From positions 5,096 to 69,095 of the forward strand of contig JAGCDH010000004.1 in assembly GCA_017651165.1 (NCBI GenBank): a DNA stretch of 64,000 nt. The letters run 5' to 3'. Every line of letters starts with the position of its first letter. Within the stretch, counting starts at the first letter, position 1. Positions 13,137-29,133 of the stretch are shown piece after piece. The notes under the pieces were generated by a model. That model did not search any database. It had not been told where the DNA came from and worked only from the letters and a program-made list of their open reading frames with translations. Source of the DNA: Bacilli bacterium. Lineage in GTDB: Bacteria; Bacillota_I; Bacilli_A; RFN20; CAG-826. Made by a program: the position numbers and the translations under genes.

Positions 13137-13155
13137 GTATTCTCATAGAGAATAC
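13137..13155. promoter_or_regulatory. Perfect 8-bp-arm palindrome, candidate operator
   Basis: GTATTCTC-ata-GAGAATAC lies about 80 nt upstream of the 13232 ORF, with no following T-run. Confidence 0.25.
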
Positions 13156-13231
13156 AGTATTAAATGTTATAAATATATTAATGATTATGCAAGGCTTTAT
13201 TATTACTAAAATAACGGTGTAAAATTAAGCC

Positions 13232-13444
13232 ATGAAAACATCAACGATCATTGGTCCGTTATTATTTGTAGTTGTGTATTTTTTCTGGGAAATTATGAAG
13301 TCAGCTTATTCGCTGTTTTCAGAGTTTACTTCTCTAAGAAATGGGATACTTGCAGCCGTTTTTGGTGTCCCAGATTATGTTATTATGATCGGCTTAGCAT
13401 TGATCGGCGTCATTAGATACATAGCCAAAAAACTATTTGATTAG
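13232..13444 (+). CDS. Small membrane protein (70 aa, two predicted TM helices)
   Basis: The hydrophobic segments IIGPLLFVVVYFFW and YVIMIGLALIGVI. No family recognised. Confidence 0.4.
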   Translation: MKTSTIIGPLLFVVVYFFWEIMKSAYSLFSEFTSLRNGILAAVFGVPDYVIMIGLALIGVIRYIAKKLFD

Positions 13445-13714
13445 TGGTGGTCTTTTCGCCATTAATTAAGACAACTTAATTGTTTTGTATATGACATTAT
13501 TATTATTTGAAGCATTTATATTGATATAAATAAATCACTAAGATATTATCTAGGCATAGAAATTGAGTATATGAGTCATAGTATGGTTGGCTCGTCTCTA
13601 CATAGCACCTATACTGCTATACTACTCATTAAGATAATTTAATGTGGGTATGTAGTAAGAACAAACTGTATACCCATTTCTTACAAGAGGAAAGGAATTT
13701 GTAAGGAGAGATTT

Positions 13715-16654
13715 ATGAAGAATAAATTTTTAACAAGAATGGCTGCGATTACACTTGGCCTAGCAATGGCTGTTGGTGTCAGTGTTGGCGTGGTAAATAA
13801 TAAAAGGGAAAAACCTGTTGTAGCGGCAGCCACTACGTATACCGAAATAGCAGGAACTAGTTTGGCTGCTGGCGATCAAGTTTTAATTACAGCCACGTCA
13901 ACAGCGAATCCGGCAGTAAATTATTATGTTCCTGTTTCAACCGATTATACAGGTTCCGCTATTTCAAATGGATTTACATATTCAGCCATAAACGACGTTG
14001 ATGATAGTCATTTGTGGACGGTTGAGAAGAATAATTCTAATTTTGCATTTAAATTTATTGATAATACTTCTACTTATTATTTAACTGTCAGCGGAACAGG
14101 AACTGGTAATAAAACAAGAATATCAACAACCACCACATATAAAAACTGGTCAATTATTAGTAAAGCAAACGGATATTCACTTCAAAATGCCACGACAAAC
14201 AACTATTTCGGCGTTTATCCAGCTGGAAGTGATTGGCGTGTTTATGCCTCATCTAGCCAAGCAAACTTTGGTGGCACCGGCGAAAGAATACATTTTTACA
14301 AGAAATATATTGCGGCTACTGGAGTCAGCTTAAATGAAACAGCACTAGAGCTTCCTGTTAGTGGGACGTTTACATTGATTCCAACTTTAGCGCCAAATGG
14401 TGCTAGCGCTACTATTTCTTGGTCCACAAGCGAACCCTCTGTTGCAACGGTTGTTGCTGGTCTTGTCACCGCTCAAAATGCTGGTTCCGCAACAATCACT
14501 GCGTTTATTGATGCCAATAGCAATGGTGCTTTAGATCAAGGCGAAATCAACGCGACTTGTTCTGTAACAGTTACTGCTGGGACCCCAGCTACCGCAATTG
14601 AATTAAACGAATCATCAGTTAATTTGCTTGCTGGTCAACAAACAACATTATCTGCTACCGTCACGCCAAACAACGCTACTGATGCCGTTGTGTGGTCTAC
14701 TTCAGATGAAACTACAGCCACAGTTAGCGATGGTGTTGTTACAACATTGAAAAATGGTATCGTTACTATCACCGCAACAGCCGGAAGCGTCCACGCTGAT
14801 TGTGAATTAAGTATCACTTCCGCTACTGCGGCAGAAAACTTTATCGGTGCAAAAATTGATCGTACAGGAAAACTGATTGCCAAAAGTGGTAAGAACGCTA
14901 TTATCGATGATGGCACTGGTGGATTTTGGGCTTATGCTAATTCAAACATCTCTCAATCAGCCGGGGCTATTGTAAATTTGAAAGGAACTTCTACTGTCTA
15001 TAGTGGTGGTTTGGAAGTTGCTAGCGCAACAGTTACTACGACAGAGAATTCTATTACAGTGTCAGAAGCAACTCCACTTTCTGAATCTGCAGCTAAGGAT
15101 TATTTAGATGCATATTTAGCAGAACCTTCTGATCCAGACTTCTTTATGCCTACCAAGAAGGTGTCTTTGAGAACAGGCGTTATTGGTGGAGAGGGATCAT
15201 ATTTAACTTGGGAATATGGTGAAACACTCATGGAAACCAATTACATCACTGGCGGCATGGAAACCGGTAAAATCTACGACATCGAAGGATATATCTTCAA
15301 ATTTTATACATCAAATGCTCAAACATATATCGTTATCGCTGTAACTGACGCTTCTGAAGTGGAAATACATGCAACATCTATTGAATTAGATAACGATTCT
15401 TTAACAATTGTTGAAGGCGATAATGATATTTTAACAGCCACCATGTCTCCTGCGGGATCTGTGGAAACCATTAAATGGGCTTCTTCGGATGAAGATGTTG
15501 CCACGGTTGATGGTGGTGTTGTGACAGGCGTTTCTGTTGGTTCTGCTACTGTTACTGCTTACATCGATGCGGATGGTGACGATGTTATTGACTTAGGTGA
15601 ATTAAAAGCGGAATGTGATGTCACTGTTATAACCCCTCCTACTTACATTCATACAAAGGTTGCGAGTTACAATTTCTCTTCCGATAATACTTCTTCTACT
15701 TCGGAATACACTAATGCGGCAACTCTTTTAGCTCGTTTTAATAACAACGACGACACAAGCCAAGGACTTTCTGATATTGTCACTGCTGTTTCTTCAATTT
15801 CCAAAGTTTATGCCGGCACAGCTAATTACTATGGTTTTGGTATTAAATTTGGTACTTCTTCAGCGAATGGAACATTCACATTGTCACTAAACACACAAGT
15901 CAAAAGAGTTGTTGTTAGAACAATTGGATGGAGTTCCTCAGACACTTTAAAGGTTGGAGACACTGATGCGCAGACCCCAGGTGTTGCGTATAACGATTCA
16001 GAGAACGATCCAATCAAAACATTGAAGTTTGACATTACTCAATCTAATAGTGTTACATTTACTTACGCAAAAAGAGGGTTTATTCAATCTATTGATTTTT
16101 ATTCCGGAACAGAAACAAGCGACCCACAAGATTTTGTTGATACTGCTTCTATTGTTCAAACAATTCATGGTCGCGAAAACTATTCGGCAGAAGTACTAAC
16201 TTCTGTAGACAATGTCGCAATAAGATTTGGCGCTTCTATTTCGAAATATAATTGGGAAGACATGAAATCAAAATGGGGAATTACCGATTATGGCGTTATG
16301 TTGATGAGTGAACAACACTTAACTGCCGGTAGTTATTCATCTGTTGAAGACGCACTTGATAAAGGAGCAAGTTCAACTTACCTTAAGGATATTCATAAAT
16401 GTCAAAATGGAACACCTTATGCAGATCCTTATTTTGATGGCGACAATTACTCATTCACAGTTAAAGTCAACTTCCCAGATGACGATCAATACTATGATGA
16501 TGTCATTTATGCCGCCCCATATGTTATTGCTGGAGGAGAACGTTATTTCTTCGGCGAGACAAATACATCAGTCCAAGCGCTAGCTCTCAGCTTATATAAT
16601 ACTGGCTATTCTTACTTATCAGATGCTGCTCTTGAGATGTTAGTTGGCGACTAA
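13715..16654 (+). CDS. Giant surface protein with three Big_2 (bacterial Ig-like group 2) domains
   Basis: N-terminal signal anchor. There are three Big_2-like segments (ISWSTSEPSVATVVAGLVTAQNAGSATITAF, VVWSTSDETTATVSDGVVTTLKNGIVTITAT, IKWASSDEDVATVDGGVVTGVSVGSATVTAY). RBS AAGGAGAG. No LPXTG. Confidence 0.8.
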   Translation: MKNKFLTRMAAITLGLAMAVGVSVGVVNNKREKPVVAAATTYTEIAGTSLAAGDQVLITATSTANPAVNYYVPVSTDYTGSAISNGFTYSAINDVDDSHLWTVEKNNSNFAFKFIDNTSTYYLTVSGTGTGNKTRISTTTTYKNWSIISKANGYSLQNATTNNYFGVYPAGSDWRVYASSSQANFGGTGERIHFYKKYIAATGVSLNETALELPVSGTFTLIPTLAPNGASATISWSTSEPSVATVVAGLVTAQNAGSATITAFIDANSNGALDQGEINATCSVTVTAGTPATAIELNESSVNLLAGQQTTLSATVTPNNATDAVVWSTSDETTATVSDGVVTTLKNGIVTITATAGSVHADCELSITSATAAENFIGAKIDRTGKLIAKSGKNAIIDDGTGGFWAYANSNISQSAGAIVNLKGTSTVYSGGLEVASATVTTTENSITVSEATPLSESAAKDYLDAYLAEPSDPDFFMPTKKVSLRTGVIGGEGSYLTWEYGETLMETNYITGGMETGKIYDIEGYIFKFYTSNAQTYIVIAVTDASEVEIHATSIELDNDSLTIVEGDNDILTATMSPAGSVETIKWASSDEDVATVDGGVVTGVSVGSATVTAYIDADGDDVIDLGELKAECDVTVITPPTYIHTKVASYNFSSDNTSSTSEYTNAATLLARFNNNDDTSQGLSDIVTAVSSISKVYAGTANYYGFGIKFGTSSANGTFTLSLNTQVKRVVVRTIGWSSSDTLKVGDTDAQTPGVAYNDSENDPIKTLKFDITQSNSVTFTYAKRGFIQSIDFYSGTETSDPQDFVDTASIVQTIHGRENYSAEVLTSVDNVAIRFGASISKYNWEDMKSKWGITDYGVMLMSEQHLTAGSYSSVEDALDKGASSTYLKDIHKCQNGTPYADPYFDGDNYSFTVKVNFPDDDQYYDDVIYAAPYVIAGGERYFFGETNTSVQALALSLYNTGYSYLSDAALEMLVGD

Positions 16655-16669
16655 GGAGGATAATTATTT

Positions 16670-16789
16670 ATGGAAAACGAAAAGAATTTTGTAAAACCAG
16701 AAGCCGAAGTCATTGAATTCTATGACGAAGATATCATTTTAACTAGTGGTGAAGGCGATATTGGTGACACTAGTTATCCTTGGTGGTAA
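16670..16789 (+). CDS. 39-aa peptide, candidate RiPP precursor 1 (ends in WW)
   Basis: AGGAGGA lies 9 nt upstream of the ATG. It encodes MENEKNFVKPEAEVIEFYDEDIILTSGEGDIGDTSYPWW and is absent from the ORF track. It is a paralog of the 16932 peptide. Confidence 0.55.
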   Translation: MENEKNFVKPEAEVIEFYDEDIILTSGEGDIGDTSYPWW

Positions 16790-16824
16790 TACCAACTAAA
16801 TTACTGTTTTAATCAACAATTTTA

Positions 16825-16850
16825 AAGGTGGAGCTATGCTCCATCTTTTA
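16825..16850 (+). terminator. Hairpin plus T-run after peptide 1 (terminator or attenuator)
   Basis: aaggtggagc-tat-gctccatctt forms a 10-bp stem with one G-U pair, followed by tttta. Confidence 0.45.
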
Positions 16851-16886
16851 TATACTTTTAATACTATAATGTTTATGAGTTTTATA

Positions 16887-16915
16887 TTGATATATAACCC
16901 CAAACAACATATTAT
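16887..16915 (+). promoter_or_regulatory. Putative sigma-70-type promoter for peptide 2 and downstream genes
   Basis: TTGATA, a 17-nt spacer, then TATTAT, ending 16 nt before the ATG at 16932. No clear SD lies in between. Confidence 0.25.
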
Positions 16916-16931
16916 TAGTTATACACCGCAC

Positions 16932-17072
16932 ATGAAAAATAAGAAGACAGATAAACAATTTGAAAAACCAGTTTTGGAAATCGTTGAATTTACCAATGAC
17001 GATATCATTACTGATAGTTTTGGCGATCCTGAACCAGGCTCAGGCGATGTTTTACCAAAGGGCTGGTGGTAA
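16932..17072 (+). CDS. 46-aa peptide, candidate RiPP precursor 2 (ends in WW)
   Basis: It encodes MKNKKTDKQFEKPVLEIVEFTNDDIITDSFGDPEPGSGDVLPKGWW. It shares an F-x-K-P-x-[AL]-E-[VI]-[IV]-E-F..D-I-I block and the WW-stop with peptide 1. The 78-aa TTG-started ORF call is rejected. Confidence 0.5.
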   Translation: MKNKKTDKQFEKPVLEIVEFTNDDIITDSFGDPEPGSGDVLPKGWW

Positions 17073-17083
17073 TAAACCAACTT

Positions 17084-19903
17084 ATGAAATTCAAAAAGTC
17101 ACATCTATATAAAATCGGCGCGTTTACCGCTGTTTTAACTTTAAACATTAGTTTATATGTCAATCTTAATAAAAAGCCTGTAGAAGCATTAAATGCTTAT
17201 AGTACAAGCGATTTACCAACCACAATTAACTTGAATGATTGTAGTGATTCAGAAATAAGATCATATTACTCTGGTCTTAATTCTTTAGACGCTTCCCAAA
17301 GAAAAGGCACTAATCTTTTAAAGAACTTAAAAACAATCTTATCTAACGGACAAAAATACTATAACTACGATAGTGGTGATAATGTCTGGAAGATGTATGA
17401 AATAACAGATAGAGACTGGGTGAAGTCTCCTGCTAATGCTATTAACTACGGGACATATAACTCAAATACCAATACGATAACTGGCTATAAGTATGGTTCT
17501 AATTATGACAACCCATACCTTCATGCTTTATATGTGAATAGAAATGTTGCTAACCATAATACACGTGCATGGGGTGACCATACTCAAACTAACTATGGAA
17601 TCAATAGAGAACATATCTGGGCTAAGTCACATGGTTTCCAAGCAGAAGGTGCTGCTGGTGCAAGAGGCGATCCAATGCACTTATGGGCCGCGAATGGCTA
17701 CGCTAATAACAAACATAGTAACTACTTCTTTGCGTTCGTAGATAAAACTAGATCATATGATAACTGTGGTTCAGCCTATAGTTATATTTCTGGCAATTAT
17801 AAGGGATATTCTAAGAACTTAGGCGGCAACCAAAACGTCTTTGAACCACAAGATTCAGATAAAGGTGATATTGCTAGAGCCGTATTCTATATGGTCGCTA
17901 GATATAACAACTACGCTGGTAACGATAATAGTATTGGTACAAATAATCCAAACTTAGTTTTAGCGAATAACTTATCTGAAAATAGTAGAACTGGTACATC
18001 AACCGCTAACGATCCATATGCGATGGGTGTATTAAGTGACCTTTTAGCGTGGAACAAACTTGATCCAGTTGATGAATACGAAAAACATAGAAACAATCTT
18101 CTATATAGAAACTTCACAAATAATAGAAATCCATTTATTGATTTCCCATCTTGGGCTGACGCTATTTGGGGAACAGCGGATTTAGATGGCACAAACTATA
18201 ATTCTTCTATTACCACTGTTGCTAATCCGGCATTAGACTCAATTAATTCTGGTGCTGCTGGTAATGCATTCAATATTTCAGTAGGTAATCTTGATTTAGA
18301 AGTTGGTGATACCGCAGAAATCTATGGTAGCAACGCTAACGGTAATATTACTTGGACAGTTAGCGACAATACTGTCGTGAGTTTAAGTAAGAACAGTAGC
18401 ACTAATAATGAAATAGTAACTATTACCGCTTTAAAGAGTGGTAACACTACAATTACCGCCACTAGTGGTGGCAACAGTGAAACATGTACAATTACTGTTT
18501 CCGATAGTGTTATTAACTATGGCTCACCAGAGCATCCTTTAACTATTACACAAGCCAAACAAGTTATTGATACCGTTAGTGCTGGTTCTCTAACACCAGA
18601 AAAGATGTACGTTAAAGGCATTATTTCTTCCAATACAGCCTTTAATACTAAATACAACAATTACGACCATGTCTGGTTACAAAGCGAAGATGGGCAAACA
18701 ACGAACGCTTTTGATTTAAGACGTTCTATTTTAGATGATTCTATTACTGATGATTATTCCGCCGCTAATTCTATGCAAGGCCTTGAAGCAGTAGCGTATG
18801 GCTTTGGAGAGTTTTATAACTCCACGTATCAACTATTTACAGACGCAAATAATCAAAACAATCCTTTGATTCTTTCTCTTGAACCGGTTGTTATTCCAGA
18901 GAAAACACCACAAGAAAAGATAGAAGAAATAACAACCACAACAAAACTTTCATATCGTTACACATCGGAAGAAAGTGAAGGCTCTGTTACTGATACTTTA
19001 AACAAAGCATTTACCGGTAGAACCGCAACGAAATATGAAGACTGGACTAACGATGGTGTTTCTGGCGTTACCTACGTCGGCCAAAGTGCTGCCGGGAACA
19101 ACGCAATTCAACTAAGAAGTAACAATAATAATTCAGGTATTGTTGTTTCAGCTAATCCAAATAGTCTTCCGGCAGCTAGCATTACCGTCGCTTGGAATCA
19201 AAATACAGAGGACGGGCGTACTTTAAATGTTTATGGTAAGAGCACAGCGTATTCCGCTGCTACTGATTTATATAATGCGAATAGTCAAGGTACCTTGCTA
19301 GGAACAATTGTTTATGGAACTAATACAAGTTTGACCATTACAGGCTCTTATCCGTTTATTGGATTTAGATCTAGTAGTGGTGCCCTCTGGTTAGACGAAG
19401 TCCAAATCGTGTGGGGTAGTGGTTCTTCTACTACCTATGAATATAGTGATGTATCTATTAGATTTGGTGGACTTCTCTCACAAGACTTATGGAATGATCT
19501 AGATACTGAAAACCATGTTATCGAAGGTTTCGGTGTCATGATTACCACTTATGATGTTTTAGAAGGTGAAGACATTAAAGACTATTACGATAATGCTGAA
19601 CCGGCAGAATCTGATCCAGATATCGAAGATGACATTATTAACCACTATATGGATAAGACAGAAATGAGTGTTCCTCCAGAACAAGACGATAACTATTTCT
19701 GGAATCTATTCTTTAGAATAACTGATTACACAAAGGTTTATACCGCTGCGGCATATATTAAGACATCATCAGAATATGTCTTCTTTGGTCAAGTGACATA
19801 TTCCGTTAAAACATTAGCGGAAGATTATATCGCCAATAGGGGATATTCTGCTAGTGCTGCAAATGGTTCATTAGGTAACCTTGCTAATCTATCCGTTAAC
19901 TAA
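17084..19903 (+). CDS. Secreted or surface endonuclease I-family nuclease fused to Big_2 and other modules
   Basis: Endonuclease_1 motifs: NREHIWAKSHG, GDPMHLWAANGYANNKHSN, EPQDSDKGDIARAVFYMVARY and NNRNPFIDFP. There is a Big_2-like segment (ITWTVSDNTVVSL...ITATSGG) and an N-terminal signal anchor. ATG at 17084 is preferred to the GTG at 17066. Confidence 0.85.
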   Translation: MKFKKSHLYKIGAFTAVLTLNISLYVNLNKKPVEALNAYSTSDLPTTINLNDCSDSEIRSYYSGLNSLDASQRKGTNLLKNLKTILSNGQKYYNYDSGDNVWKMYEITDRDWVKSPANAINYGTYNSNTNTITGYKYGSNYDNPYLHALYVNRNVANHNTRAWGDHTQTNYGINREHIWAKSHGFQAEGAAGARGDPMHLWAANGYANNKHSNYFFAFVDKTRSYDNCGSAYSYISGNYKGYSKNLGGNQNVFEPQDSDKGDIARAVFYMVARYNNYAGNDNSIGTNNPNLVLANNLSENSRTGTSTANDPYAMGVLSDLLAWNKLDPVDEYEKHRNNLLYRNFTNNRNPFIDFPSWADAIWGTADLDGTNYNSSITTVANPALDSINSGAAGNAFNISVGNLDLEVGDTAEIYGSNANGNITWTVSDNTVVSLSKNSSTNNEIVTITALKSGNTTITATSGGNSETCTITVSDSVINYGSPEHPLTITQAKQVIDTVSAGSLTPEKMYVKGIISSNTAFNTKYNNYDHVWLQSEDGQTTNAFDLRRSILDDSITDDYSAANSMQGLEAVAYGFGEFYNSTYQLFTDANNQNNPLILSLEPVVIPEKTPQEKIEEITTTTKLSYRYTSEESEGSVTDTLNKAFTGRTATKYEDWTNDGVSGVTYVGQSAAGNNAIQLRSNNNNSGIVVSANPNSLPAASITVAWNQNTEDGRTLNVYGKSTAYSAATDLYNANSQGTLLGTIVYGTNTSLTITGSYPFIGFRSSSGALWLDEVQIVWGSGSSTTYEYSDVSIRFGGLLSQDLWNDLDTENHVIEGFGVMITTYDVLEGEDIKDYYDNAEPAESDPDIEDDIINHYMDKTEMSVPPEQDDNYFWNLFFRITDYTKVYTAAAYIKTSSEYVFFGQVTYSVKTLAEDYIANRGYSASAANGSLGNLANLSVN

Positions 19904-19910: not shown

Positions 19911-20624
19911 ATGGTGAACTTCAAAATTAAAATCGCCGAAATAGTGTTAGAGATTAATGCTTTTAATGAAATCACAAAGAAGTATTGTAGGGACTTTTTA
20001 AGTGACGAAGAACCTGACTATATTATTACTCTAACTGAAGAAGATCTAAGAAATGAAGTTACTGAATCAAATAATGGACACGTGTATGTAAACGAAGAGA
20101 TCTCAGCGTTATATCGTAAGATCGCAGACTTACTCATTGAAAACGATATCATTGTCTTCCATGGTTCATCTTTTAAAGTTAAAGATAGTGGCTTTATAGT
20201 GACCGCGAGAAGTGGTGTGGGTAAATCCACTCATGTGAAGTTATTAAGTGAATACTTAGGTAATGATTTTGAATATATTAATGATGATAAGCCATTACTT
20301 AAAGTAAAAGATGAATTAGTGTTATATTCCAATCCTTGGAATGGTAAAGAAAGAAGAGGTAATAATACCTCCGCTTCCTTAAAAGCGGTCATCTTCCTTA
20401 ATAGGGGAGATAATACTTATAAGAAACTAGATAATAAAGAAGAAGTCTACTTTAAGTTATTAAGTCAAATCTATTTACCAAGAGATAAAGCTAAAAGAGA
20501 AAAAGCTTTGAAGTTAATTGATATATTATTAAAGAGACTTAATTTTTATGAAATTAATGTCAATATGGATATATCTTCCGCAGAGATGACTAGTGAAAGG
20601 ATTATTAAAAATGAAATTAAATGA
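19911..20624 (+). CDS. HPr kinase-like P-loop protein (HprK-related kinase)
   Basis: FHGSSFKVKDSGFIVTARSGVGKSTHVKLL matches the HprK C-terminal domain pattern (HG..v...g.G.li.G.SG.GKS), followed by NDDKP and NPWNGK. ATG at 19911 lies 7 nt after the nuclease stop. Confidence 0.7.
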   Translation: MVNFKIKIAEIVLEINAFNEITKKYCRDFLSDEEPDYIITLTEEDLRNEVTESNNGHVYVNEEISALYRKIADLLIENDIIVFHGSSFKVKDSGFIVTARSGVGKSTHVKLLSEYLGNDFEYINDDKPLLKVKDELVLYSNPWNGKERRGNNTSASLKAVIFLNRGDNTYKKLDNKEEVYFKLLSQIYLPRDKAKREKALKLIDILLKRLNFYEINVNMDISSAEMTSERIIKNEIK

Positions 20625-20877
20625 GAACTTTTTAATCCATCAAACAGATAATGGTGAAATCTTAATTCCAGTAGGGGAAGAAACTAAAAGATTTCATGGT
20701 GTTATTAAACTCAATAGCACTGGTTCTGAAATAGTCCACTTATTAGAAAATAATGATCTGTCATTAGAGGACATTCTTAATCATTTCTATGAAGAATATC
20801 CTGATAATAAAGAAGAAGTCAAAGAAGGGGTCACTAGTTTTATCAATAAACTAAGAGAAATCAATGCCGTCATTTGA
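20611..20877 (+). CDS. PqqD-family protein (RiPP recognition element-like peptide chaperone)
   Basis: 88 aa. IKLNSTGSEIVHLLENNDLSLEDILNHFYEEY....VKEGVTSFINKLREINAVI matches the PqqD pattern (LN.tG..i..ll....s.e.i......y......dv..Fi..L). It overlaps the upstream gene by 14 nt. Confidence 0.7.
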   Translation: MKLNENFLIHQTDNGEILIPVGEETKRFHGVIKLNSTGSEIVHLLENNDLSLEDILNHFYEEYPDNKEEVKEGVTSFINKLREINAVI

Positions 20878-21286
20878 AGAAGTGTTAGATAAGGATGGTG
20901 AATTAATATTCACCAACGTTGGTTATTCTATGTATCCTTTGATTAAAGAACGAGAGGATATTTTAAGAATCGTTAAAACTGATGCTTTTAAGAAAGGTGA
21001 TATTATTCTTTTTAAATCTGAGATAGACCACTATGTGTTACACAGAATCTTAAAAATTAAAAAAGATAAGATTATTACTGCGGGCGATCATAACTACCGT
21101 AAGGATCAACCAATTACTAGGGAACAAGCCCTAGGAAAGCTCGTATCAATCAAAAAGAAAGATGGTAAGGAAATAGATCTAGCGAAAGATAAAAAGGCCA
21201 GAAAGTTCTTTTATACAAATTTCTTTCACGTTAAAGCATTCTTCCAAATGTTGGGTACAGTATTACATTTAAGAAGAGTTAAGTGA
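20864..21286 (+). CDS. S24/S26-family peptidase, SipW/Sec11-like Ser/His type, no TM anchor
   Basis: GYSMYPLI supplies the Ser nucleophile box. VLHRIL puts His where bacterial SPase I and LexA have Lys. AGDHNYRKD matches the GDN..D box. No hydrophobic N-terminus. It overlaps the PqqD gene by 14 nt. Confidence 0.65.
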   Translation: MPSFEEVLDKDGELIFTNVGYSMYPLIKEREDILRIVKTDAFKKGDIILFKSEIDHYVLHRILKIKKDKIITAGDHNYRKDQPITREQALGKLVSIKKKDGKEIDLAKDKKARKFFYTNFFHVKAFFQMLGTVLHLRRVK

Positions 21287-21288
21287 TT

Positions 21289-21316
21289 AGAACCTAACAG
21301 GTTCTTTTCTTTTTTA
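21289..21316 (+). terminator. Rho-independent terminator
   Basis: Perfect 7-bp stem agaacct-aac-aggttct, followed by tttctttttt. Confidence 0.65.
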
Positions 21317-21323
21317 AAACAAA

Positions 21324-21354
21324 TGTGAAACAAAATAAACAAAAATGTTTCACA
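21324..21354. promoter_or_regulatory. Perfect 9-bp inverted repeat, candidate operator overlapping the -35 region
   Basis: TGTGAAACA, a 13-nt spacer, then TGTTTCACA. The right arm overlaps the -35 position of the extended -10 promoter at 21368-21376. Confidence 0.4.
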
Positions 21355-21367
21355 AGCAATTTAATCA

Positions 21368-21376
21368 TGGTATATT
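21368..21376 (+). promoter_or_regulatory. Extended -10 element (TGgTATATT)
   Basis: TGGTATATT lies 22 nt upstream of the ATG at 21398. AAGGAAAA RBS is in between. Confidence 0.35.
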
Positions 21377-21397
21377 TTATATACAAGGAAAAGTATT

Positions 21398-22318
21398 ATG
21401 CCGACCATTGTTGAATTACTTAGCGAAAAGAAGCAACTTGTTAATCAATTAGATTCCATGATTTATGGATCAATTGAAATTAGAGACGAGAAGTACATCT
21501 ATGTTCATTTTAGACAAGATGGTGCTTTAATGACGAAATACGCTGGTGAATACTCCGATGTTTTGTATAACTTAATTATCAACAACACAAACCACGCTAA
21601 AGAGATTAAGAAGCACATCAAAGAAATCAACAAAGAGTTAAAAGCTCTAAACTATGTTGAAGTTGAAGGTGTTGATGAAATGGTAGCAATGAATATTGAT
21701 TTAGCCAGAAGAAACCTCGTTGATTCTATTTATAAACAATCGATGTTAGAAGGTGTGGCCACGACATACTCTGATACAGAAACTTTAGTTAATGGCGGAA
21801 GAGTTAATGATATGAGCGCTGTTGATGTTGACAAAGTCATCAATCTAAAGAGAGCGTGGCAGTTTATTATGTCAATTGATTTAGCAAATTATCCAACTAA
21901 CTATGCTGTGTTATGCCAAATTAACCAAATTGTGGAAGATGGTTTTTCTGTGACCGCAGGAAAGATTAGAAAAGTGCCTGTCGCTGTTGGTGGATCATCA
22001 TATATCCCACCAATTCCTTTTGAAGATCAAGTTAAACAAGATATCTATGATATTCTACATCAAGAAGAAGGCGTCGATTTAGCTGTTGACCTAGTTTTAT
22101 ATGTAATGAAAAAGCAACTATTTTTAGATGGTAATAAAAGAACTGCAATTATATTCGCTAATCACTATCTAATTACACACGCCCTTGGTTTAATAGTGGT
22201 CCCTGCCGAATTAGTGGACGAATATAAAAAGATTCTCGTTTCTTATTATGAAAATGAAAACAAAAAGGAAGATATTGCAAATTTCTTAAAAGAAAAATGC
22301 TGGATTAGATTAAAATGA
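21398..22318 (+). CDS. Fic/Doc-family protein with a Doc-like, His-less motif
   Basis: Fic fold cues are QSMLEGVATTYSDTETLV and GKIRKVPVAVGGSSYIPP. The active-site loop reads QLFLDGNKRTAI, against canonical HPFxDGNGRxxR and the Doc motif HxFxD[AG]NKR. Confidence 0.65.
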   Translation: MPTIVELLSEKKQLVNQLDSMIYGSIEIRDEKYIYVHFRQDGALMTKYAGEYSDVLYNLIINNTNHAKEIKKHIKEINKELKALNYVEVEGVDEMVAMNIDLARRNLVDSIYKQSMLEGVATTYSDTETLVNGGRVNDMSAVDVDKVINLKRAWQFIMSIDLANYPTNYAVLCQINQIVEDGFSVTAGKIRKVPVAVGGSSYIPPIPFEDQVKQDIYDILHQEEGVDLAVDLVLYVMKKQLFLDGNKRTAIIFANHYLITHALGLIVVPAELVDEYKKILVSYYENENKKEDIANFLKEKCWIRLK

Positions 22319-23964
22319 AAAACAAAGAAACACTAAAGTTCATATCTAATAACATCAAAGGCTGTAAGACTAAGATCTTCATTCTTTCTTTATGCCAAAT
22401 TATGCTTGGTGTTCTTGTCGTTGCGTTTTCGTTTACGCTCCGCTACATCATTAGAGCGATTGAAAGCCATGGTCAAGCATCATTAACTAAGTGGACGATT
22501 GTGATGAGCTGTATTGCCTTTGGCATTGTGGTCTTACAAATCTTCTATCGTATTTACTATGAATATAGCCACGTCGCAATTGAAAATAAGTTAAAAGACA
22601 ATCTTTTTAAAACCATTCTTTCTAAGAACTATCAAGATGTGAAAAAGATCCATGATGAAGAATGGATTCATCGTTTAACTAGTGACACTAGTGTGATTGC
22701 TTCTTCGATTTTATCAATCTTACCTTCTTTATGTAGAATGGTTGTTCAACTCGCCTTAGCTTTAGCGGCGATTATCTATTTATATCCAGTCTTTGGTTTA
22801 TCATTATTACCATTTATTGTCTTAGTTATTCTATTAACTTATTTCATGAGGAAACGCTTAAAAGCGTATCATCATTTAGCACAAGAAAAAGATGGTAAGG
22901 CAAAAGTCTTCTTTTCTGAATCGCTTCAAGGATTATCAATTGTGCATTCTTTCGTTAAAGAAGATGTCTTTTCAAAGAAAAACGAACAGAACTTAGAAGA
23001 ATATAAGAAAGCGAGAGTAAAAAGAAATCTCTTCGCCGTATTCTGCTCTGTTGGTTTTATCGTTGTTTACTATACTTTCTATATCTTGGCCATTATCTTC
23101 TGCGGTAACGCAATTATTAAGGGTTCAATGACTATTGGTTTATTGACCGCTTTAGTAGCGCTTTTAACTCAATTAACAGGCCCATTAGGTAACTTAACCG
23201 CAATTGTTCCTCAATACTATTCTTTAATCGCTTCTGGTGAACGTTTAAGAATTGAAAAGGATGAGGACGTGCATTACTTATCTAAAGAAGAAATCGCTGA
23301 TTACTATGATAAAGAATTCAAAGGTCTTTCATTTAATAAGGCCTCATTCTCTTATCTAGATAAATATGGCAATGAAGTTGAAGCCATTAGAGATTTCTCA
23401 TTAGTCGTTAATAAGAATTCAAAAGTCTTAATCAAAGGTCATTCTGGTGGTGGTAAATCCACATTATTTAAGTTAATGCTTTCTTTATTAACTCCAGATC
23501 ATGGTCAAATTAATTTATTAGATAATAAAGAACATCCTTTAGAAAAGAAATATGAAAAGCTCTTTAGTTATGTTCCTCAAGATAATCTTTTAATGCAAGG
23601 CACTGTTAAAGAAGTGGTGACTTTATTTGAAGATAAACCAAATGAAGCACAATTTAATAAAGCCTTAGAGATTAGTGATTCTTTATCATTTATTAATAAT
23701 CTTCCACTTAAAGAGAATACTTTCCTTAATGAAAAAGGTAGTGGTCTTTCTTTAGGTGAAATGGAAAGAATTGCGATTGCAAGAGCGGTGTACGCTGATG
23801 CGCCTATTCTCTTATTAGACGAGTGCAGCGCGTCATTAGACGCTCAAACAGAAAAGAAAGTCATGAATAACATTTTATCTTTAGATAATAAGACTATCGT
23901 TTTAATCTCCCACCATAAATATAACGAATCATCATTTGATCAAGTCGTTGATCTTGGAGAATAG
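22315..23964 (+). CDS. ABC exporter, fused TMD-NBD half-transporter
   Basis: Six N-terminal TM helices. Walker A GHSGGGKST, signature LSLGEMERIAIARAV, Walker B ILLLDECSASLD. ATGA start/stop overlap with the Fic gene. No C39 peptidase domain. Confidence 0.85.
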   Translation: MKNKETLKFISNNIKGCKTKIFILSLCQIMLGVLVVAFSFTLRYIIRAIESHGQASLTKWTIVMSCIAFGIVVLQIFYRIYYEYSHVAIENKLKDNLFKTILSKNYQDVKKIHDEEWIHRLTSDTSVIASSILSILPSLCRMVVQLALALAAIIYLYPVFGLSLLPFIVLVILLTYFMRKRLKAYHHLAQEKDGKAKVFFSESLQGLSIVHSFVKEDVFSKKNEQNLEEYKKARVKRNLFAVFCSVGFIVVYYTFYILAIIFCGNAIIKGSMTIGLLTALVALLTQLTGPLGNLTAIVPQYYSLIASGERLRIEKDEDVHYLSKEEIADYYDKEFKGLSFNKASFSYLDKYGNEVEAIRDFSLVVNKNSKVLIKGHSGGGKSTLFKLMLSLLTPDHGQINLLDNKEHPLEKKYEKLFSYVPQDNLLMQGTVKEVVTLFEDKPNEAQFNKALEISDSLSFINNLPLKENTFLNEKGSGLSLGEMERIAIARAVYADAPILLLDECSASLDAQTEKKVMNNILSLDNKTIVLISHHKYNESSFDQVVDLGE

Positions 23965-25095
23965 ATGGATAAAAAAGAATTCGCTAGTGGTGTATTTAAC
24001 TACCTACATCTAGTGGGCCTTTATTTAAATAAGAAGACCGCTAGTGATTTTAAGGTGGATGATAGCAATATCTCTTTTTATGTTGGATTATCTAAACACC
24101 ATTCCTTAATGGCTATATTCTATAAAGCCTTAAAATCCACGAAAGCGGACATTAGTGAAGATAATCTTAAAAAGTTAGAAGAATATTATCTATCTAATGT
24201 CAGAAAGTCTGCTTTATTTGCTAAAGAAAGAAAAGATATCTATAAGTTTTTAAATGACAATCAAATCGATTTCTTACCTCTAAAAGGTATTGTTATTAAA
24301 GATTTTTATTTAGATCCAGACACAAGAGAATTCGCGGATAACGATATTCTTTTTACCGCTTCTAAAGATAAACTTGTTAAAGAATTCTTTGTTAAAAAGG
24401 GCTATAAGGTTGAAACCTTTAGAAGAGGCAACCATGATGTCTATCAAAAGAAGCCATTCTTTAATTTTGAAATGCATCGTGATTTGTTCGCCGAGAGAGA
24501 AGACGGACGTGCTTTTTCAACTTACTTTAAAGACTATCTAAAGAACTCTTCAATTAAAGATGGATATGAACATTATTTGAACAAAGAAGACTTCTATATC
24601 TATTTCTTAGCCCACGCTTTTAAGCATTTTGATAATTCTGGATGTGGAATTAGAACATTAATAGATTTCTATTTATACCTTAAAAATAACGAACTAGATT
24701 TTGATTATATTAATAAAGAGTTAGAGATGATTGGTTTATTAGATTTTTCTAATAAGTTATCTTCTTTGTCCATCAAAGTATTTGATGAAGAAGAATTAGA
24801 TGAAGAAGAAATCGAAATGCTTCTATTTATCGCTTCGAGTGGTACTTATGGCACCTTAGCCAACAGTGTCGCTAAAGGGGTCAAAGAAAAAGGAAGATTT
24901 AGATACTTAATGCGTCGTATCTTCCCTCCAATGTCTTTTTATAAAACAGCCTACCCACGCTTATATAAAACTAAAGTCTTAATTCCTGTAGCCTGGTTTA
25001 TGCGTTTATTCCGCATCATCTTTAAAAATCCAAAAAGAGCGACCGCGGAAATCAAACTCATTAGTAAAACCAAAAAAGAAAAGAAAAGCGACTAA
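23965..25095 (+). CDS. Nucleotidyltransferase-family protein (uncharacterised NTP_transf_5 type)
   Basis: FLPLKGIVIKDFYLDPDTREFADNDILF matches the family core (LKG....Yp....R...DiDiLv). It also has FEMHRDLF and HAFKHF....GIRTLIDFYL. The start abuts the ABC stop. Confidence 0.6.
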   Translation: MDKKEFASGVFNYLHLVGLYLNKKTASDFKVDDSNISFYVGLSKHHSLMAIFYKALKSTKADISEDNLKKLEEYYLSNVRKSALFAKERKDIYKFLNDNQIDFLPLKGIVIKDFYLDPDTREFADNDILFTASKDKLVKEFFVKKGYKVETFRRGNHDVYQKKPFFNFEMHRDLFAEREDGRAFSTYFKDYLKNSSIKDGYEHYLNKEDFYIYFLAHAFKHFDNSGCGIRTLIDFYLYLKNNELDFDYINKELEMIGLLDFSNKLSSLSIKVFDEEELDEEEIEMLLFIASSGTYGTLANSVAKGVKEKGRFRYLMRRIFPPMSFYKTAYPRLYKTKVLIPVAWFMRLFRIIFKNPKRATAEIKLISKTKKEKKSD

Positions 25096-25214: not shown

Positions 25215-27137
25215 ATGAAAAATGTTTTGAAAAAGATGACTTATTTGATGGTTGGTCTTTTAGTGACCGGTTGTGGCGCCAAAATTCCAACTGAAAACAG
25301 CACATCAAATAATCCGTCAACATCAGCCAATCCTGGTAAGTCCTCAACATCCAACAACCCAGGACCAAGTAGAAGTAGTAGTTCTGCCGCTGGAGCGCAC
25401 GTCCACGCATGGTCAACAGATTGGGCCTATGATGAGACACTACACTGGCATACCTGCTCAGGATGTAATGAAAAGAACGCTAATGTAGCGCACACATTCG
25501 GTGAATGGCAAGAACAAAATTTAGGCACACTTCTTAGTAAAGAAGACTACAACCGTTATACAGTTAAGTATAAAGAATGTAGCGTTTGCCATTATAGACA
25601 AATGGATGCTACATATTCTGTTCTTCCAGAAATTAGATTTACTTTTGAAGCGAGTGATCCAAATGCCGACTTCGCTACAAAAGCGAGAAGTACTGACTCC
25701 GATAGACCAACTGTTGAAGGCAAAATTTCAGTTACCAATGCTGGCGATTTAAATATCACAGATGCTGTTGCCACTATGAAAGTCAGAGGTAACCAAACCG
25801 CCGGCTTTGATAAAAAAGGCTTACAAATCAAATTTGATAAGAAACAAAACTTATTAGATTTAAATGCTGGACCAGATGGTAAAGGCTTCAAGAAATGGGT
25901 CTTATTAGCAGATGCTAAAGACACCACAATTTCCAGAAGTGCTTTAGGTTTAACAATGTCCAAAGGCGTTATTGCCGAAGATTCTAAAGCTTGGTCAGTT
26001 AACTTCACACCAGTTTCTGTTTATCTTAATAATCAATACTGGGGCATGTACATGTTAGCCGATCAAAAAGAAGTTAAAGATGGCAGAATCAAACTAGCCG
26101 AACCAATCGAAGAAGTGAAAAATCCAGAAACTGGCAAAAAGGAAGAAGTTCCTATTATGACCACAGATATCGGTTACTGCTTCGAATTAGATAACTACGC
26201 TAAAGACGAATCCAAAAAAGCTGATGGTGGTGATCCAACATTTAGAATTGATTATGATGGCATGACTTCAAGAGACTTTAATGTTGAAGGCAATAACTCT
26301 GTCAACGATTTAGTCTACACATATACCATGAACTCTGATATTAACGATGGACCAGAGGGCACCCATGTCGATGATAGCAATAGTGAACAAGTCAAATTTA
26401 TTAAAAATAGACTTACTGCTTTATTCAAAGTACTCCATCAAGCAGCGTCCAATAATAGAGCGTATGAAATCAACGCTAATAACCAAGCTGTTGCTACCTC
26501 AGCAAAAACAGTGAAACAAGTAGTCGAAGAAAACTTTGACCTCAACGCTTGGGCGGAAGGCTTCATTATCAATGCTGTCTGCTTACCACCAGATGTTGGT
26601 TATTCCTCATTCTATATGTCATTCGATAATACGGAAAATGGCGATAAGAAGTTAAGATTTGATAACCCATGGGACTTCGATAGTAATTTTGGCAACAGAA
26701 GAAATTTCCTTGTTAACCCAGATCAAAAGAACGGTAACTACGATCCATACTACATGGATAGAACCGCTAACTTATGGTTCCAATTACTCAACAAGTTAGA
26801 CTTCTTTATTAATGATTACGTCAAACCAAAATGGAACGCCGTTAGAGAAGCTAAAGTATTTGAAAAAATGCTCGGTATGGCGGATGTTTATTACACATAC
26901 TTTGATGGCGAATATCAAAAGAACTTTGCAAAATGGACAACCACACAAGCAAGCGATCAAAACGTTGCTAGCTACTTCAACGGTGATGGCGTCAACCGTG
27001 GTGAATTAAGAACCCCATTCGTTGAAGTCAGTCAACGTAAACAAGCTCAAAAAGAAACTATCAGATGGTTGACAAGTCGTATTAATTACCTCGAAAAACA
27101 ATGGGGTAATAATAGACCAGGTGTTACCGCTGAATAG
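25215..27137 (+). CDS. CotH kinase-family lipoprotein with an N-terminal Cys/His-rich segment
   Basis: Lipobox LLVTGC. CotH-like blocks are KKWVLLADAKDTTISRSALGLTMSKG, VYLNNQYWGMYMLADQKE and KKLRFDNPWDFDSNFG. The N-terminal segment reads HVHAWSTDW..HWHTCSGC....CSVCH. Confidence 0.6.
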   Translation: MKNVLKKMTYLMVGLLVTGCGAKIPTENSTSNNPSTSANPGKSSTSNNPGPSRSSSSAAGAHVHAWSTDWAYDETLHWHTCSGCNEKNANVAHTFGEWQEQNLGTLLSKEDYNRYTVKYKECSVCHYRQMDATYSVLPEIRFTFEASDPNADFATKARSTDSDRPTVEGKISVTNAGDLNITDAVATMKVRGNQTAGFDKKGLQIKFDKKQNLLDLNAGPDGKGFKKWVLLADAKDTTISRSALGLTMSKGVIAEDSKAWSVNFTPVSVYLNNQYWGMYMLADQKEVKDGRIKLAEPIEEVKNPETGKKEEVPIMTTDIGYCFELDNYAKDESKKADGGDPTFRIDYDGMTSRDFNVEGNNSVNDLVYTYTMNSDINDGPEGTHVDDSNSEQVKFIKNRLTALFKVLHQAASNNRAYEINANNQAVATSAKTVKQVVEENFDLNAWAEGFIINAVCLPPDVGYSSFYMSFDNTENGDKKLRFDNPWDFDSNFGNRRNFLVNPDQKNGNYDPYYMDRTANLWFQLLNKLDFFINDYVKPKWNAVREAKVFEKMLGMADVYYTYFDGEYQKNFAKWTTTQASDQNVASYFNGDGVNRGELRTPFVEVSQRKQAQKETIRWLTSRINYLEKQWGNNRPGVTAE

Positions 27138-27192: not shown

Positions 27193-29133
27193 TTAATTGT
27201 TTTTAGCGAGGAACTCCAAGAGGTCATCTTCTTTTAATGGTTTAGAGAAGTAATAACCTTGGATGTATTCAATTTGTTTCTTAACTGATAACTTTAATTG
27301 ATCTTCTCTTTCCACACCTTCAATAACGATTGGGATATTTAAATTCTTAAATAAGTTAATCGCCGCATCAAAGAAGATGGTAATATTCTCGGCTTGCCCT
27401 AATAAAGATTTATCTAATTTAGCGACCGAGAATGGAAGAGTAATAAATCTAGCGATATTAGAATAGCCACTGCCAAAGTCATCCATCGCGAATTTCACGC
27501 CATATTGGCCTAAATCAGACATGAATTCTTTTGTCTTGCTTGGATATTTGACCGCGATGGTTTCCGTGATTTCTAGGATGATTCTGCTAGGATCAATACC
27601 ATAGCTATTAATAATCTTCATAAATCTTTCGCTTGGATTGTTAAAGAATTCCGCACAAGAGATATTAACTTCCAAGCTTTCAATTTGAGGGTTTCTGGCT
27701 AAGAACGCACATGTTTGATGTAAAACGAAGAAATCGATGTCATTAGCAAGACCAAAGTTTTCGGCGATAGGAATGAATTCCGCTGGGCCGACATAGCCTA
27801 ATTCTTCATTGGCTAATCTAATTAATGATTCGAAGTGATTAAAGACTTTCTTATTCACGTCATAGATTGGTTGATAGACCATATATAAACCTTGTTTAGT
27901 TCTTAAGCATTCTTCTAGGATTTCTTTGATTCTTCTATCTCTGCTGATTTGCTTTAAGAAATTATCGTCTAATTCAATACAAGAAGAATCCTTAAAGTTA
28001 ACAATGGACAAGGTTCTTGTCATGAAGTCGTTATACATATCGGAATTAGTGAAGACTTCATTGTTTTTGAAATAAAGAATATGAAGAGTGATGTCTACGA
28101 CATGACCTTTAATAGTGAAGGGCTTATCAAATCTTTCATTGATGGCCTCTAACATGCTTAATTGCTCTTCTCTATTCTTTAAAAGCAAAACAAAGCGTGA
28201 AGACTGGACTTTAAAGACATAAGTGGTTTTGTTAACACTTCTAATAAATTTGCTGATGGAGCGGATTAATTCATTCGCGGAGACCACACCAAACTTTTCA
28301 GAGAACATACCGAAACTCTCAATATCAAAGATGATGTAATACTTTCTTTGTTTTTCATATCTTTGAGTGTTGACATAGTCAACAAAAGCATAGTCATTAA
28401 AAGCTTTAGAAATACGGTCCACTTTAACGTCTGGATCACATACTGAAACTACAGCGAACATGGCGCATAACGCAAAGGCAGTACCAGATAATAATATCTG
28501 TGGTTGTAACGTTTGTACGACCGCTGCGGAAAGAACCACAATCATAATGATAATTAATACACGGAGTAGCTCTTTTGGTAGAACTTTTCTAAACGCCACA
28601 GTGTAAATAATGGTCGCTAAATAGTTCAATCCCCAGTTAAGAATGTATAAGGAAAAGAATGCTGGTCCTGGAATGAAATCATAAAGACCATTAGCGCCAG
28701 GAACAAAGGTAAAGTTCCAGTGATGAAGACAGTTGGTAAAGAAGAGTATCACGCCTAACGCGGACGGGATAATAGTTAATAGATATATTGGTGAGTAGCG
28801 TAGTGACTTCCCAATAGCATAGAAAACATACGCGAATAAGGAATAGGAAATAAGGAACTGCATCGCGAAGAATAATTCTGCAGCGGCTTCGACAAATGGA
28901 AGAGGCACAACATCAGAATGATCTAATAAAACACAGAACAATATATCTAAGGCAACATTCGCGGTTAAGAATATCAAGCCAACACCAAATAACCTTGCCG
29001 TAGCAACAGGAAACTTCTTACGTGTGAAGTAAGCAATGGTGATAGCAACCAAGAATACTAAAGCGCATAATTCCAAATAGTAATTACAATGAAGATTTTC
29101 AGTGAAACGATGGAATGCTGCGTATATCTGCAT
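27193..29133 (-). CDS. Membrane sensor with a degenerate GGDEF domain and an intact EAL domain (c-di-GMP phosphodiesterase)
   Basis: About 7 N-terminal TM helices. The GGDEF position reads QSSRF. EAL motifs present: YQPIYD, ESLIRL, ILEITE, FAMDDFGSGYSN, KLDKSL, IEGVE and QGYYFSKP. Confidence 0.85.
   Translation of the reverse strand: MQIYAAFHRFTENLHCNYYLELCALVFLVAITIAYFTRKKFPVATARLFGVGLIFLTANVALDILFCVLLDHSDVVPLPFVEAAAELFFAMQFLISYSLFAYVFYAIGKSLRYSPIYLLTIIPSALGVILFFTNCLHHWNFTFVPGANGLYDFIPGPAFFSLYILNWGLNYLATIIYTVAFRKVLPKELLRVLIIIMIVVLSAAVVQTLQPQILLSGTAFALCAMFAVVSVCDPDVKVDRISKAFNDYAFVDYVNTQRYEKQRKYYIIFDIESFGMFSEKFGVVSANELIRSISKFIRSVNKTTYVFKVQSSRFVLLLKNREEQLSMLEAINERFDKPFTIKGHVVDITLHILYFKNNEVFTNSDMYNDFMTRTLSIVNFKDSSCIELDDNFLKQISRDRRIKEILEECLRTKQGLYMVYQPIYDVNKKVFNHFESLIRLANEELGYVGPAEFIPIAENFGLANDIDFFVLHQTCAFLARNPQIESLEVNISCAEFFNNPSERFMKIINSYGIDPSRIILEITETIAVKYPSKTKEFMSDLGQYGVKFAMDDFGSGYSNIARFITLPFSVAKLDKSLLGQAENITIFFDAAINLFKNLNIPIVIEGVEREDQLKLSVKKQIEYIQGYYFSKPLKEDDLLEFLAKNN

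Follow-up and report, generated by a model that had tools for sequence, protein, structure and literature searches.

The question raised by this locus is which peptide pathway is encoded by six consecutive + strand genes at 19911–25095 of a 64,000-nt stretch of DNA (the window) on contig JAGCDH010000004.1 of assembly GCA_017651165.1, the metagenome-assembled genome (MAG) of an uncultured 'Bacilli bacterium' (RFN20; CAG-826). An earlier note on this DNA had offered two readings: an undescribed route to a peptide that is made on the ribosome and modified after translation (RiPP), or an accessory module of a lasso-peptide cluster whose cyclase (C) and protease (B2) genes lie elsewhere in the genome. 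The open reading frame (ORF) listing of the window has all six ORFs where that note had placed them. We consider it likely that five of the six, together with two precursor genes upstream (Table 1), form a RiPP cassette of the Linear Polyphosphorylated Peptide (LPP) type, colinear with lppA-K-B-S-D-N. By analogy with that cluster, the products would most likely be short secreted peptides bearing phosphate groups.

LPPs were defined by Popov et al. (Nat Commun, May 2026; PMC13381572), and the route is thus already a published one; in outline, as a RiPP route complete in itself and lacking a lasso cyclase, the first of the earlier readings does find support. The lppA-K-B-S-D-N cluster of Paenibacillus alginolyticus DSM5050 encodes, in this order, a precursor, an HprK-like kinase, a RiPP recognition element (RRE), a SipW-type leader peptidase, an MsbA-like exporter and an NTP-transferase (PMC13381572). 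When studied in B. subtilis, LppK puts one to four phosphates on Ser3 of the core, and the substitutions S3A, S3T and S3Y abolish this modification; LppS (S29, H68, D93) cleaves after Thr-1 (F-E-T) only in the presence of LppB, leaves the phosphate on the core and cuts unphosphorylated precursor poorly (PMC13381572). The published distribution of the family, whose precursors have the motif YxxPxVLxHQxIxFETxxS, covers 80 of 9,173 complete Bacilli genomes and a single peptidase cluster with 126 members (PMC13381572). As a reference we used a locus of Paenibacillus frigoriresistens (L084) whose LppS is 97% identical to the published one and in which lppA-K-B-S-D-N is followed by a complete, separate paeninodin-type lasso cluster (8671–18633 for the pair), each of the two having its own kinase, RRE and NTP_transf_5 gene.

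The first of the six genes, K, contains the P-loop ARSGVGKSTH and had been called HprK-like. That label is right at the superfamily level only, since K has no match of its own in Pfam or NCBIfam scans, its relatives match weakly and its predicted model matches both PEP carboxykinase (PEPCK) and HprK. Among 45 aligned members of the K family, 34 match TIGR04355 (HprK_rel_B), 34 match TIGR04249 (ScmC) and 28 match TIGR04352 (HprK_rel_A), all far below the curated cut-offs. The AlphaFold model (pLDDT 95.8) finds PEP carboxykinases as its best structural matches, together with HPr kinase/phosphorylase; with HPr kinase/phosphorylase proper, K has the fold and P-loop alone in common (13.9 bits against a cut-off of 240 when PF07475/TIGR00679 were tested). 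The residues conserved in K (H84, S101-G-x-G-K105-S-T and D125-D126) include the His-Lys-Asp-Asp set described for lasso kinases, and H84, K105 and D125-D126 align with H118, K139 and D154-E155 of LppK. Within the reference locus, where both kinds of kinase lie side by side, the profile of the K family gives LppK 73.9 bits (E 8e-24) and the lasso kinase PbaK 32.1 bits. Both LppK and close homologues of K have PF27840 (ScmC) on record, and the precomputed annotation of the reference locus marks LppK with it strongly and the lasso kinase weakly. Sequence searches of PDB chains with K, and with the peptidase and nucleotidyltransferase described below, returned nothing useful, the kinase profile matching P-loops only and PEPCK/HprK weakly.

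K is followed by Q and S, and the two 14-nt start/stop overlaps said to chain the three genes, ATGAAATTAAATGA and ATGCCGTCATTTGA, are both found in the sequence. Q, described as a PqqD-like protein of 88 amino acids (aa), does match PF05402, as a discrete RRE. It is barely similar to LppB but clearly similar to RREs of Lachnoclostridium, Dehalobacter and Anaerocolumna (E 1e-17 to 1e-13) that are filed as 'RRE others' in Supplementary Data 1 of the LPP study, where they lie beside peptidases of sequence similarity network (SSN) cluster 4 (Dehalobacter, Anaerocolumna) and cluster 20 (Lachnoclostridium) (PMC13381572). A further 'RRE others' entry, an RRE not compared here, lies beside a cluster 9 peptidase of an uncultured Ruminococcus (PMC13381572). 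Clusters 4, 9 and 20 and 'RRE others' were not analysed further by the authors, who pursued cluster 1 alone (PMC13381572).

The peptidase S agrees with this placement. Its family profile scores members of SSN cluster 9 at 137 bits, cluster 4 at 112 and 96, cluster 20 at 91 and cluster 1 at 71 and 59; S was not placed in cluster 1, whose edges require E <= 1e-23, on pairwise values of about 4e-16 to two cluster 1 members, the network itself not having been rebuilt. Pairwise identity of S to LppS is 33–34% (E 4e-16 and 2.7e-14), the catalytic residues S22, H60 and D81 align with S29, H68 and D93 of LppS, and the catalytic boxes are invariant in the family. The best profile match is TIGR02228, the archaeal-type signal peptidase I (50.6 bits, just below the cut-off of 51.85), and the predicted model has the S24/S26 clan fold, which upholds the earlier assignment to S24/S26. 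Whether S is also soluble, as had been stated, is uncertain because the model, while lacking an N-terminal membrane anchor, ends in a long hydrophobic helix (residues 110–139). By homology with LppS, the substrate of S would be a cytoplasmic leader peptide presented by the RRE, not a Sec signal peptide. The suggestion that a Ser/His S26 peptidase removes the leader is in keeping with the role demonstrated for the homologous and colinear LppS (PMC13381572).

The remaining two members are A, an ABC exporter with transmembrane and nucleotide-binding domains (TMD-NBD), and N, an NTP_transf_5 protein with the invariant residues K107-G108, D125, D127, E169, H171, H217 and H221, whose profile matches both LppN and PbaN. 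Of the modifying roles foreseen for the kinase and the nucleotidyltransferase, the former gains support from its homologue LppK (PMC13381572); for the latter the analogy is with PsmN, which is needed for hexose addition on phospho-Ser in pseudomycoidin.

What would these enzymes act upon? A hidden Markov model (HMM) of the leader, run over the whole window, finds two peptides only, precursors A and B, and related loci have one to six precursor genes each. In precursor A the leader has its FxxP motif together with F17, D21 and I23, the invariant Ser is S26, and a GGAGG ribosome-binding site belongs to its own gene; S29 is the corresponding Ser of precursor B. The leader motif of the clade is [Y/F]xxPx(M/A/L)E(V/I)(V/I)xFxxxD(I/V)IxxS, with the consensus KYETPEMEIVEFETEDIITTS (K-E-K-Y-E-T-P-E-M-E-I-V-E-F-E-T-E-D-(V/I)-I-T-T-S) followed by Gly in 74% of precursors. 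In an alignment of 24 sequences the leader Asp and Ser are invariant, and the Phe and Ile nearly so. A profile search collected 4,069 precursor peptide clusters, none with a Pfam family or an informative name, and literature searches on the leader motif (EDVITTS and variants) and on HprK, PqqD and radical SAM together returned nothing relevant.

The tails, which we take as the cores and for which the statistics come from 159 precursors, are hypervariable and rich in Gly, Asp, Glu, Pro and Asn, with a median of 13 residues and a minimum of six; sub-families such as NDLPxxGI, ETPFVPAE, GLGDGGNQD and GIDDGDxD recur. Both window peptides end in WW, as had been observed, but this ending is confined to the closest relatives of the window and was rejected as a family feature. 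The earlier expectation that an internal Thr, Ser or Tyr of the core is modified fares poorly, given that 51 of the 159 tails (32%) have no Ser, Thr or Tyr at all. Because of these 51, the Ser at the leader–core junction is the sole hydroxyl available in every precursor, and by analogy to Ser3 of LppA this invariant Ser (S26 in peptide A and S29 in peptide B) is the likely target of the kinase.

Expression of the two precursors may be set apart from that of the enzymes. The hairpin directly after the gene for precursor A may act as an attenuator, a promoter-like site at 16887–16915 precedes the gene for precursor B, and from these elements the two peptides may be expressed at levels other than those of the enzymes.

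To establish which genes belong together, we searched one genome per species with a 10-sequence kinase alignment and compared 80 related loci in detail, 46 of them with full flanks, taking 10 kb as the neighbourhood. K, Q, S, A and N recur together among at least 576 loci, mostly in rumen and gut Clostridia, including the cultured Ruminococcus flavefaciens Y1, and also in uncultured Bacilli; among the loci listed, Erysipelotrichaceae, Synergistaceae and one Paludibacteraceae MAG are further hosts. In the 46 full-flank loci the kinase is accompanied by Q in 85%, by S in 76%, by A in 61%, by N in 50% and by a radical SAM/SPASM gene in 9% (4/46); occasional radical SAM genes aside, no further conserved enzyme family occurs within 10 kb across the 80 loci. 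Natural fusions join K to an S24 peptidase, K to PqqD, K to NTP_transf_5, S to N and a radical SAM protein to K, and because such fusions exist the fused and co-occurring proteins can be expected to act together. Homology, colinearity, conserved catalytic residues, co-occurrence and gene fusions are in this case direct observations. The co-occurrence on which the earlier note had hung its proposal thus extends to K, Q, S, A and N, but not to the Fic gene or the WW ending.

The Fic/Doc-like gene between S and A, counted previously as a member of the system, is absent from all 80 related loci and was rejected as a component; in the 77%-identical relative L001, which reads peptide, lipoprotein, peptide, lipoprotein, kinase, PqqD, peptidase, NERD protein, exporter and NTP_transf_5, a NERD gene occupies the same spot. 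The terminator-like hairpin (21289–21305) with its T-run after S is present as described, as are the perfect 9-nt inverted repeat and the TG-extended -10 site (21349–21376) before Fic, the promoter being a consensus match only. The division into two units that they were held to mark does exist in the window, but is secondary, since the S and A genes abut or overlap in relatives (L002, L003, L005 and L006). On this comparison of gene order, Fic is a lineage-specific insertion that brought along the terminator, palindrome and promoter and split an ancestrally coupled K-Q-S-A-N operon. In Fic/Doc proteins a catalytic His is expected where the motif QLFLDGNKRTA has Gln, because of which the inserted protein may be inactive or divergent; the N-K-R part of the motif is Doc-like. 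Another Fic gene (407–1447 of L082) is found some 5 kb upstream of where the window starts.

That these genes are instead the accessories of a split lasso cluster, with C and B2 encoded elsewhere in the genome, appeared reasonable from their identity, K, PqqD, NTP_transf_5 and an ABC exporter being typical accessories of paeninodin-type lasso clusters, and about one-third of the cluster 1 signal peptidase I (SpI) genes adjoin lasso genes (PMC13381572). The absence of core lasso and other RiPP enzymes from the window, as first reported, is confirmed: Pfam scans of all large window ORFs find no Asn_synthase, transglutaminase-like, radical SAM, YcaO, LanM or ATP-grasp protein, and no SGGxDS PP-loop motif occurs in any frame of the 64 kb. 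Neither C nor B2 is recorded among the genes of about 6 kb beyond each window end, in a precomputed annotation that is able to record B2, because it does so in the true lasso cluster of the reference locus. Across the 80 related loci no lasso-cyclase-sized protein with the PP-loop motif was found, the one SGGxDS match being in a protein of 258 aa. Moreover, a leader peptidase is encoded in the cassette itself, most cores are shorter than a lasso requires, no Asp or Glu is fixed at positions 7–9, only nine of the 159 end in Ser, and the adjacent lasso cluster of Paenibacillus carries a separate K, B1, B2 and N. We therefore give the split-lasso reading almost no weight.

We give just as little to the idea of a ranthipeptide- or sactipeptide-type cluster whose radical SAM maturase has been lost or lies elsewhere. 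Four loci do place radical SAM/SPASM genes next to Cys-containing precursors with the same leader, a radical SAM–K fusion exists, and members of the K family match ScmC of the SynChlorMet cassette; against these stand the rarity of the gene among complete loci, the lack of Cys in the two cores of the window and the lack of a CxxxCxxC motif inside the listed window ORFs. Judged by gene content, radical SAM dependence is limited to the minority of loci with Cys-containing cores. The genes in question are about 450 aa long (L007, 930–2342; L018, 7339–8649; L024, 8622–9983; L067, 11645–14409), lie inside or beside the K-Q-S cassette, and match Radical_SAM and Fer4_12 in the two that were scanned; the fusion with the kinase is protein P0219. 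From this arrangement the cassette seems to act as a chassis that can take up a second modification.

Returning to the LPP-type reading, we propose the following sequence of events, in which we infer by analogy to the characterized lpp and psm clusters which residue accepts the phosphate, in what order the steps run and what N does. Q would bind the [Y/F]xxPx(hydrophobic) motif of the leader as a beta-strand and present the precursor to K, which would phosphorylate the junction Ser (S26 or S29) once or several times. Q would then hand the precursor to S, acting as a SipW-type Ser/His/Asp peptidase, for removal of the leader, and A would export the short acidic product. Where N is present, it would probably decorate the phosphate further, as in the PsmN-dependent addition of hexose to pseudomycoidin. 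Three sites are candidates for the cleavage: after F-x-x, homologous to F-E-T of LppA and with an F-E-T consensus seven residues before the Ser; after D-(I/V)-I, which has the same spacing from the Ser as the LppA site; and after T-x-S, which satisfies the classical -3/-1 rule and alone of the three would leave the phosphate on the leader.

Were the third site used, the outcome would differ: S would cut after T-x-S, phospho-Ser would depart with the leader, K would be a gate for proteolysis and the cores would be unmodified short linear peptides, pheromone-like or destined for the matrix. The Thr at -3 and Ser at -1 suit the small-residue rule, and Gly commonly comes next; the poor cleavage of unphosphorylated LPP precursor (PMC13381572) and the action of lasso kinases on a Ser with a free C-terminus accord with such licensing, as do hypervariable cores with recurring sub-families and up to six precursor genes per locus. 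However, LppA is cut after F-E-T, two residues before the phospho-Ser, and keeps its phosphate on the core (PMC13381572), the F-E-T triplet is likewise the consensus in the clade of the window, and no conserved receptor gene was found beside the cassette among related loci. We regard phospho-licensed leader removal as unlikely.

New core chemistry deserves still less credence. In such a scheme K and/or N would activate a carboxylate, be it that of Asp or Glu or the C-terminal one, and the amine of the new N-terminus would close a macrolactam, giving a small cyclic or branched-cyclic peptide. Asp or Glu is present in 158 of the 159 cores, Gly is first in 74%, many cores are Pro-rich and 8–15 residues long, and it is PEP carboxykinases that K resembles most in fold; yet the acidic residue holds no fixed position, half of the loci lack N, both LppK and the lasso kinases phosphorylate Ser, and LPP clusters yield linear products (PMC13381572). 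We judge this scheme very improbable.

Several observations weigh against a straightforward transfer of LPP chemistry to the window. K and LppK are just 23% identical, Q falls outside the LppB clade (E 0.036–0.14 to LppB), and the leader HMMs of the two groups barely detect each other. The spacing from Phe to Ser is nine residues vs five in LPP, so that the sites of cleavage and phosphorylation can be mapped only with uncertainty. Half of the complete related loci have no N, deletion of LppN changed nothing, and LppN activity was not detectable in the heterologous system (PMC13381572). Since the RRE clade, peptidase profile, leader HMMs and Phe-to-Ser spacing all differ, we file the system of the window, on sequence grounds, as a sister branch of LPP, with the same architecture and another recognition module and core type; the chemistry, by analogy, is probably the same.

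Table 1. Precursors, cassette genes and adjoining features of the window, in order of position
Feature	Position	Strand	Description	Basis
Large secreted protein	13715..16654	+	979 aa, three Big_2 domains; ends 15 nt before precursor A; context, not a conserved component	Pfam
Precursor A	16670..16789	+	39 aa; MENEKNFVKPEAEVIEFYDEDIILTS (leader), GEGDIGDTSYPWW (core); ends ...YPWW	ORF list, leader HMM
Hairpin after precursor A	16824..16848	+	terminator-like; 11-bp stem, T-rich tail	hairpin scan
Precursor B	16932..17072	+	46 aa; MKNKKTDKQFEKPVLEIVEFTNDDIITDS (leader), FGDPEPGSGDVLPKGWW (core); ends ...KGWW	ORF list, leader HMM
Large secreted protein	17066..19903	+	945 aa, Endonuclease_1 and Big_2; between precursors and K, ends 7 nt before K	Pfam
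K	19911..20624	+	P-loop kinase, HprK/PEPCK fold, ScmC family; LppK counterpart	family profile, AlphaFold model, residue alignment
Q	20611..20877	+	discrete PqqD-type RRE; functional counterpart of LppB from a different RRE clade	PF05402, 5.7e-11
S	20864..21286	+	archaeal/ER-type (SipW-like, S26B) signal-peptidase homologue; LppS counterpart	TIGR02228, homology to LppS
Hairpin after S	21289..21316	+	intrinsic-terminator-like, with T-run	hairpin scan
Palindrome and promoter-like site	21324..21376	+	perfect 9-nt inverted repeat TGTGAAACA/TGTTTCACA at 21324-21354, overlapping promoter-like site	sequence scan
Fic	21398..22318	+	Fic/Doc-like, motif QLFLDGNKRTA	PF02661, 1.6e-9
A	22315..23964	+	TMD-NBD ABC exporter without peptidase domain; LppD counterpart	ABC_membrane and ABC_tran; 27% identity to LppD, E 2.4e-36
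N	23965..25095	+	NTP_transf_5 nucleotidyltransferase-fold protein; LppN/PsmN counterpart	NTP_transf_5, 8e-41

Two large secreted proteins border the precursor genes of the window. The position of the first, the 979-aa Big_2 protein, is held in relatives by other large secreted proteins or lipoproteins, and the second, the 945-aa protein, whose true start is likely the ATG at 17084, is not conserved in relatives. The two have in common a C-terminal region of about 135 aa (28% identity). In at least 12 Clostridial loci (L018, L023, L027, L045, L047, L048, L051, L053, L054, L060, L064 and L078) the gene for a large secreted protein stops where the precursor gene starts, or no more than about 30 nt before it, as in L023 (protein 7177–9297, peptide 9315–9419), and these proteins end in a common two-repeat C-terminal domain of about 290 aa that no Pfam family covers (three members scanned). 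This domain was looked for in the large secreted proteins of the window and not detected (best domain E 0.19).

Upstream of the 979-aa gene, by 70 nt, is a purine riboswitch (RF00167; 13545–13644, +; 58.1 bits vs a gathering threshold of 37) with a promoter-like site at 13521–13549; none was found in the seven related loci in which it was sought. The arrangement of riboswitch and secreted nuclease may serve to scavenge extracellular nucleic acid under purine control.

The first gene downstream of the cassette encodes a CotH-kinase-like lipoprotein (25215–27137, +) and is followed by one for a GGDEF-EAL membrane protein (27193–29133, -), and a trio encoding VTC domain, DUF4956 and Cthe_2159 proteins is found at 41196–44658 (+); none of these is conserved beside the cassette in relatives. 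An ORF6N-domain protein followed by an HTH-APH (phosphotransferase) fusion with a weak TCAD9 match (33479–35256, +) may, by domain content, be mobile-element or defence related. The region 50066–62191 (+), with a LacI regulator, two GH130 phosphorylases, ABC permeases and GDSL esterases, is likely, from this gene content, a mannan/mannooligosaccharide utilization locus; together with a GH10 xylanase (31103–32752) it fits a plant-fibre-degrading gut organism.

The branch is much larger than the published LPP set, with at least 576 loci, about 4,000 precursor clusters and thousands of kinase clusters, and if the chemistry carries over, the tiny acidic phosphopeptides secreted by gut anaerobes would be numerous and diverse, and nobody has sought them. 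Cores of 8–25 residues would be far easier to detect and synthesize than the 45-residue core of LppA, and because of these short cores the clade offers a practical entry point to the function of LPPs, to the addition made by the NTP-transferase and to the hand-over by the RRE to kinase and peptidase. A more speculative idea, to which we attach only a slim chance, is that the (poly)phospho-Ser is an activated handle from which N transfers the phosphopeptide to a sugar hydroxyl, so that peptides become phosphodiester-linked to a surface glycan or to the neighbouring large secreted proteins; if true, this would amount to decoration of the cell surface with ribosomal peptides in gut and rumen anaerobes.

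Finally, the cassette can be set beside the known systems that it resembles. With SipW/Sec11-type (S26B) signal peptidases, S has in common the G-x-S-M-x-P, H-R and G-D-x-N-x-x-x-D boxes and the clan fold, and differs from them in having no N-terminal membrane anchor and a TIGR02228 score just under the cut-off. The SynChlorMet and HprK-related kinase A/B systems (TIGR04249, TIGR04352, TIGR04355) pair an ScmC/HprK-like P-loop protein with PqqD as here, and some related loci add radical SAM/SPASM; however, there is no radical SAM gene in the window, and a SipW-type peptidase is not a defining part of those systems. The paeninodin and pseudomycoidin lasso clusters (A, C, B1, B2, K, N, D) are like the window in their His-Lys-Asp-Asp kinase, discrete PqqD RRE, NTP_transf_5 protein, ABC exporter and YxxP-type leader, whereas the window has neither cyclase nor the Cys protease B2, a Ser/His signal-peptidase homologue takes the part of leader peptidase, the Ser that is conserved stands at the leader–core junction, not at the C-terminus, and the K profile scores the lasso kinase PbaK at 32 bits vs 74 for LppK.

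The closest likeness is to LPP. Six functions stand in the same order (K-RRE-S-(Fic)-D-N in the window, and exactly so in relatives that lack the Fic insertion), four proteins (peptidase, kinase, exporter and NTP-transferase) are homologous, catalytic residues are kept, the RRE is likewise of PqqD type, and neither cassette has a macrolactam synthetase. Both leaders have an RRE-binding motif of the [Y/W]xxP type and a triplet like F-E-T, a Ser is conserved near the junction, and the C-terminal parts of the precursors vary. In the clade of the window the matching elements are [Y/F]xxPx(hydrophobic), the Phe (94%), the F-E-T consensus and the invariant Ser, while the middle of the motif and the Phe-to-Ser spacing differ, as does the consensus as a whole (KYETPEMEIVEFETEDIITTS vs YxxPxVLxHQxIxFETxxS); from Tyr to Ser the distance is 19 residues here and 18 in LPP. 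The RRE belongs to 'RRE others', the peptidase profile is nearer to SSN clusters 9, 4 and 20 than to cluster 1, and tails have a median of 13 residues vs 45 in LppA, with up to six precursor genes per locus. The hosts are mainly gut and rumen Clostridia and uncultured Bacilli, genes for large secreted proteins, in place of capsule loci, are frequent neighbours, a radical SAM gene is sometimes present, and the window copy is broken by the Fic gene. What is new here is that this gut and rumen branch is very large and has an RRE clade and a leader motif of its own, with cores that are tiny and hypervariable.

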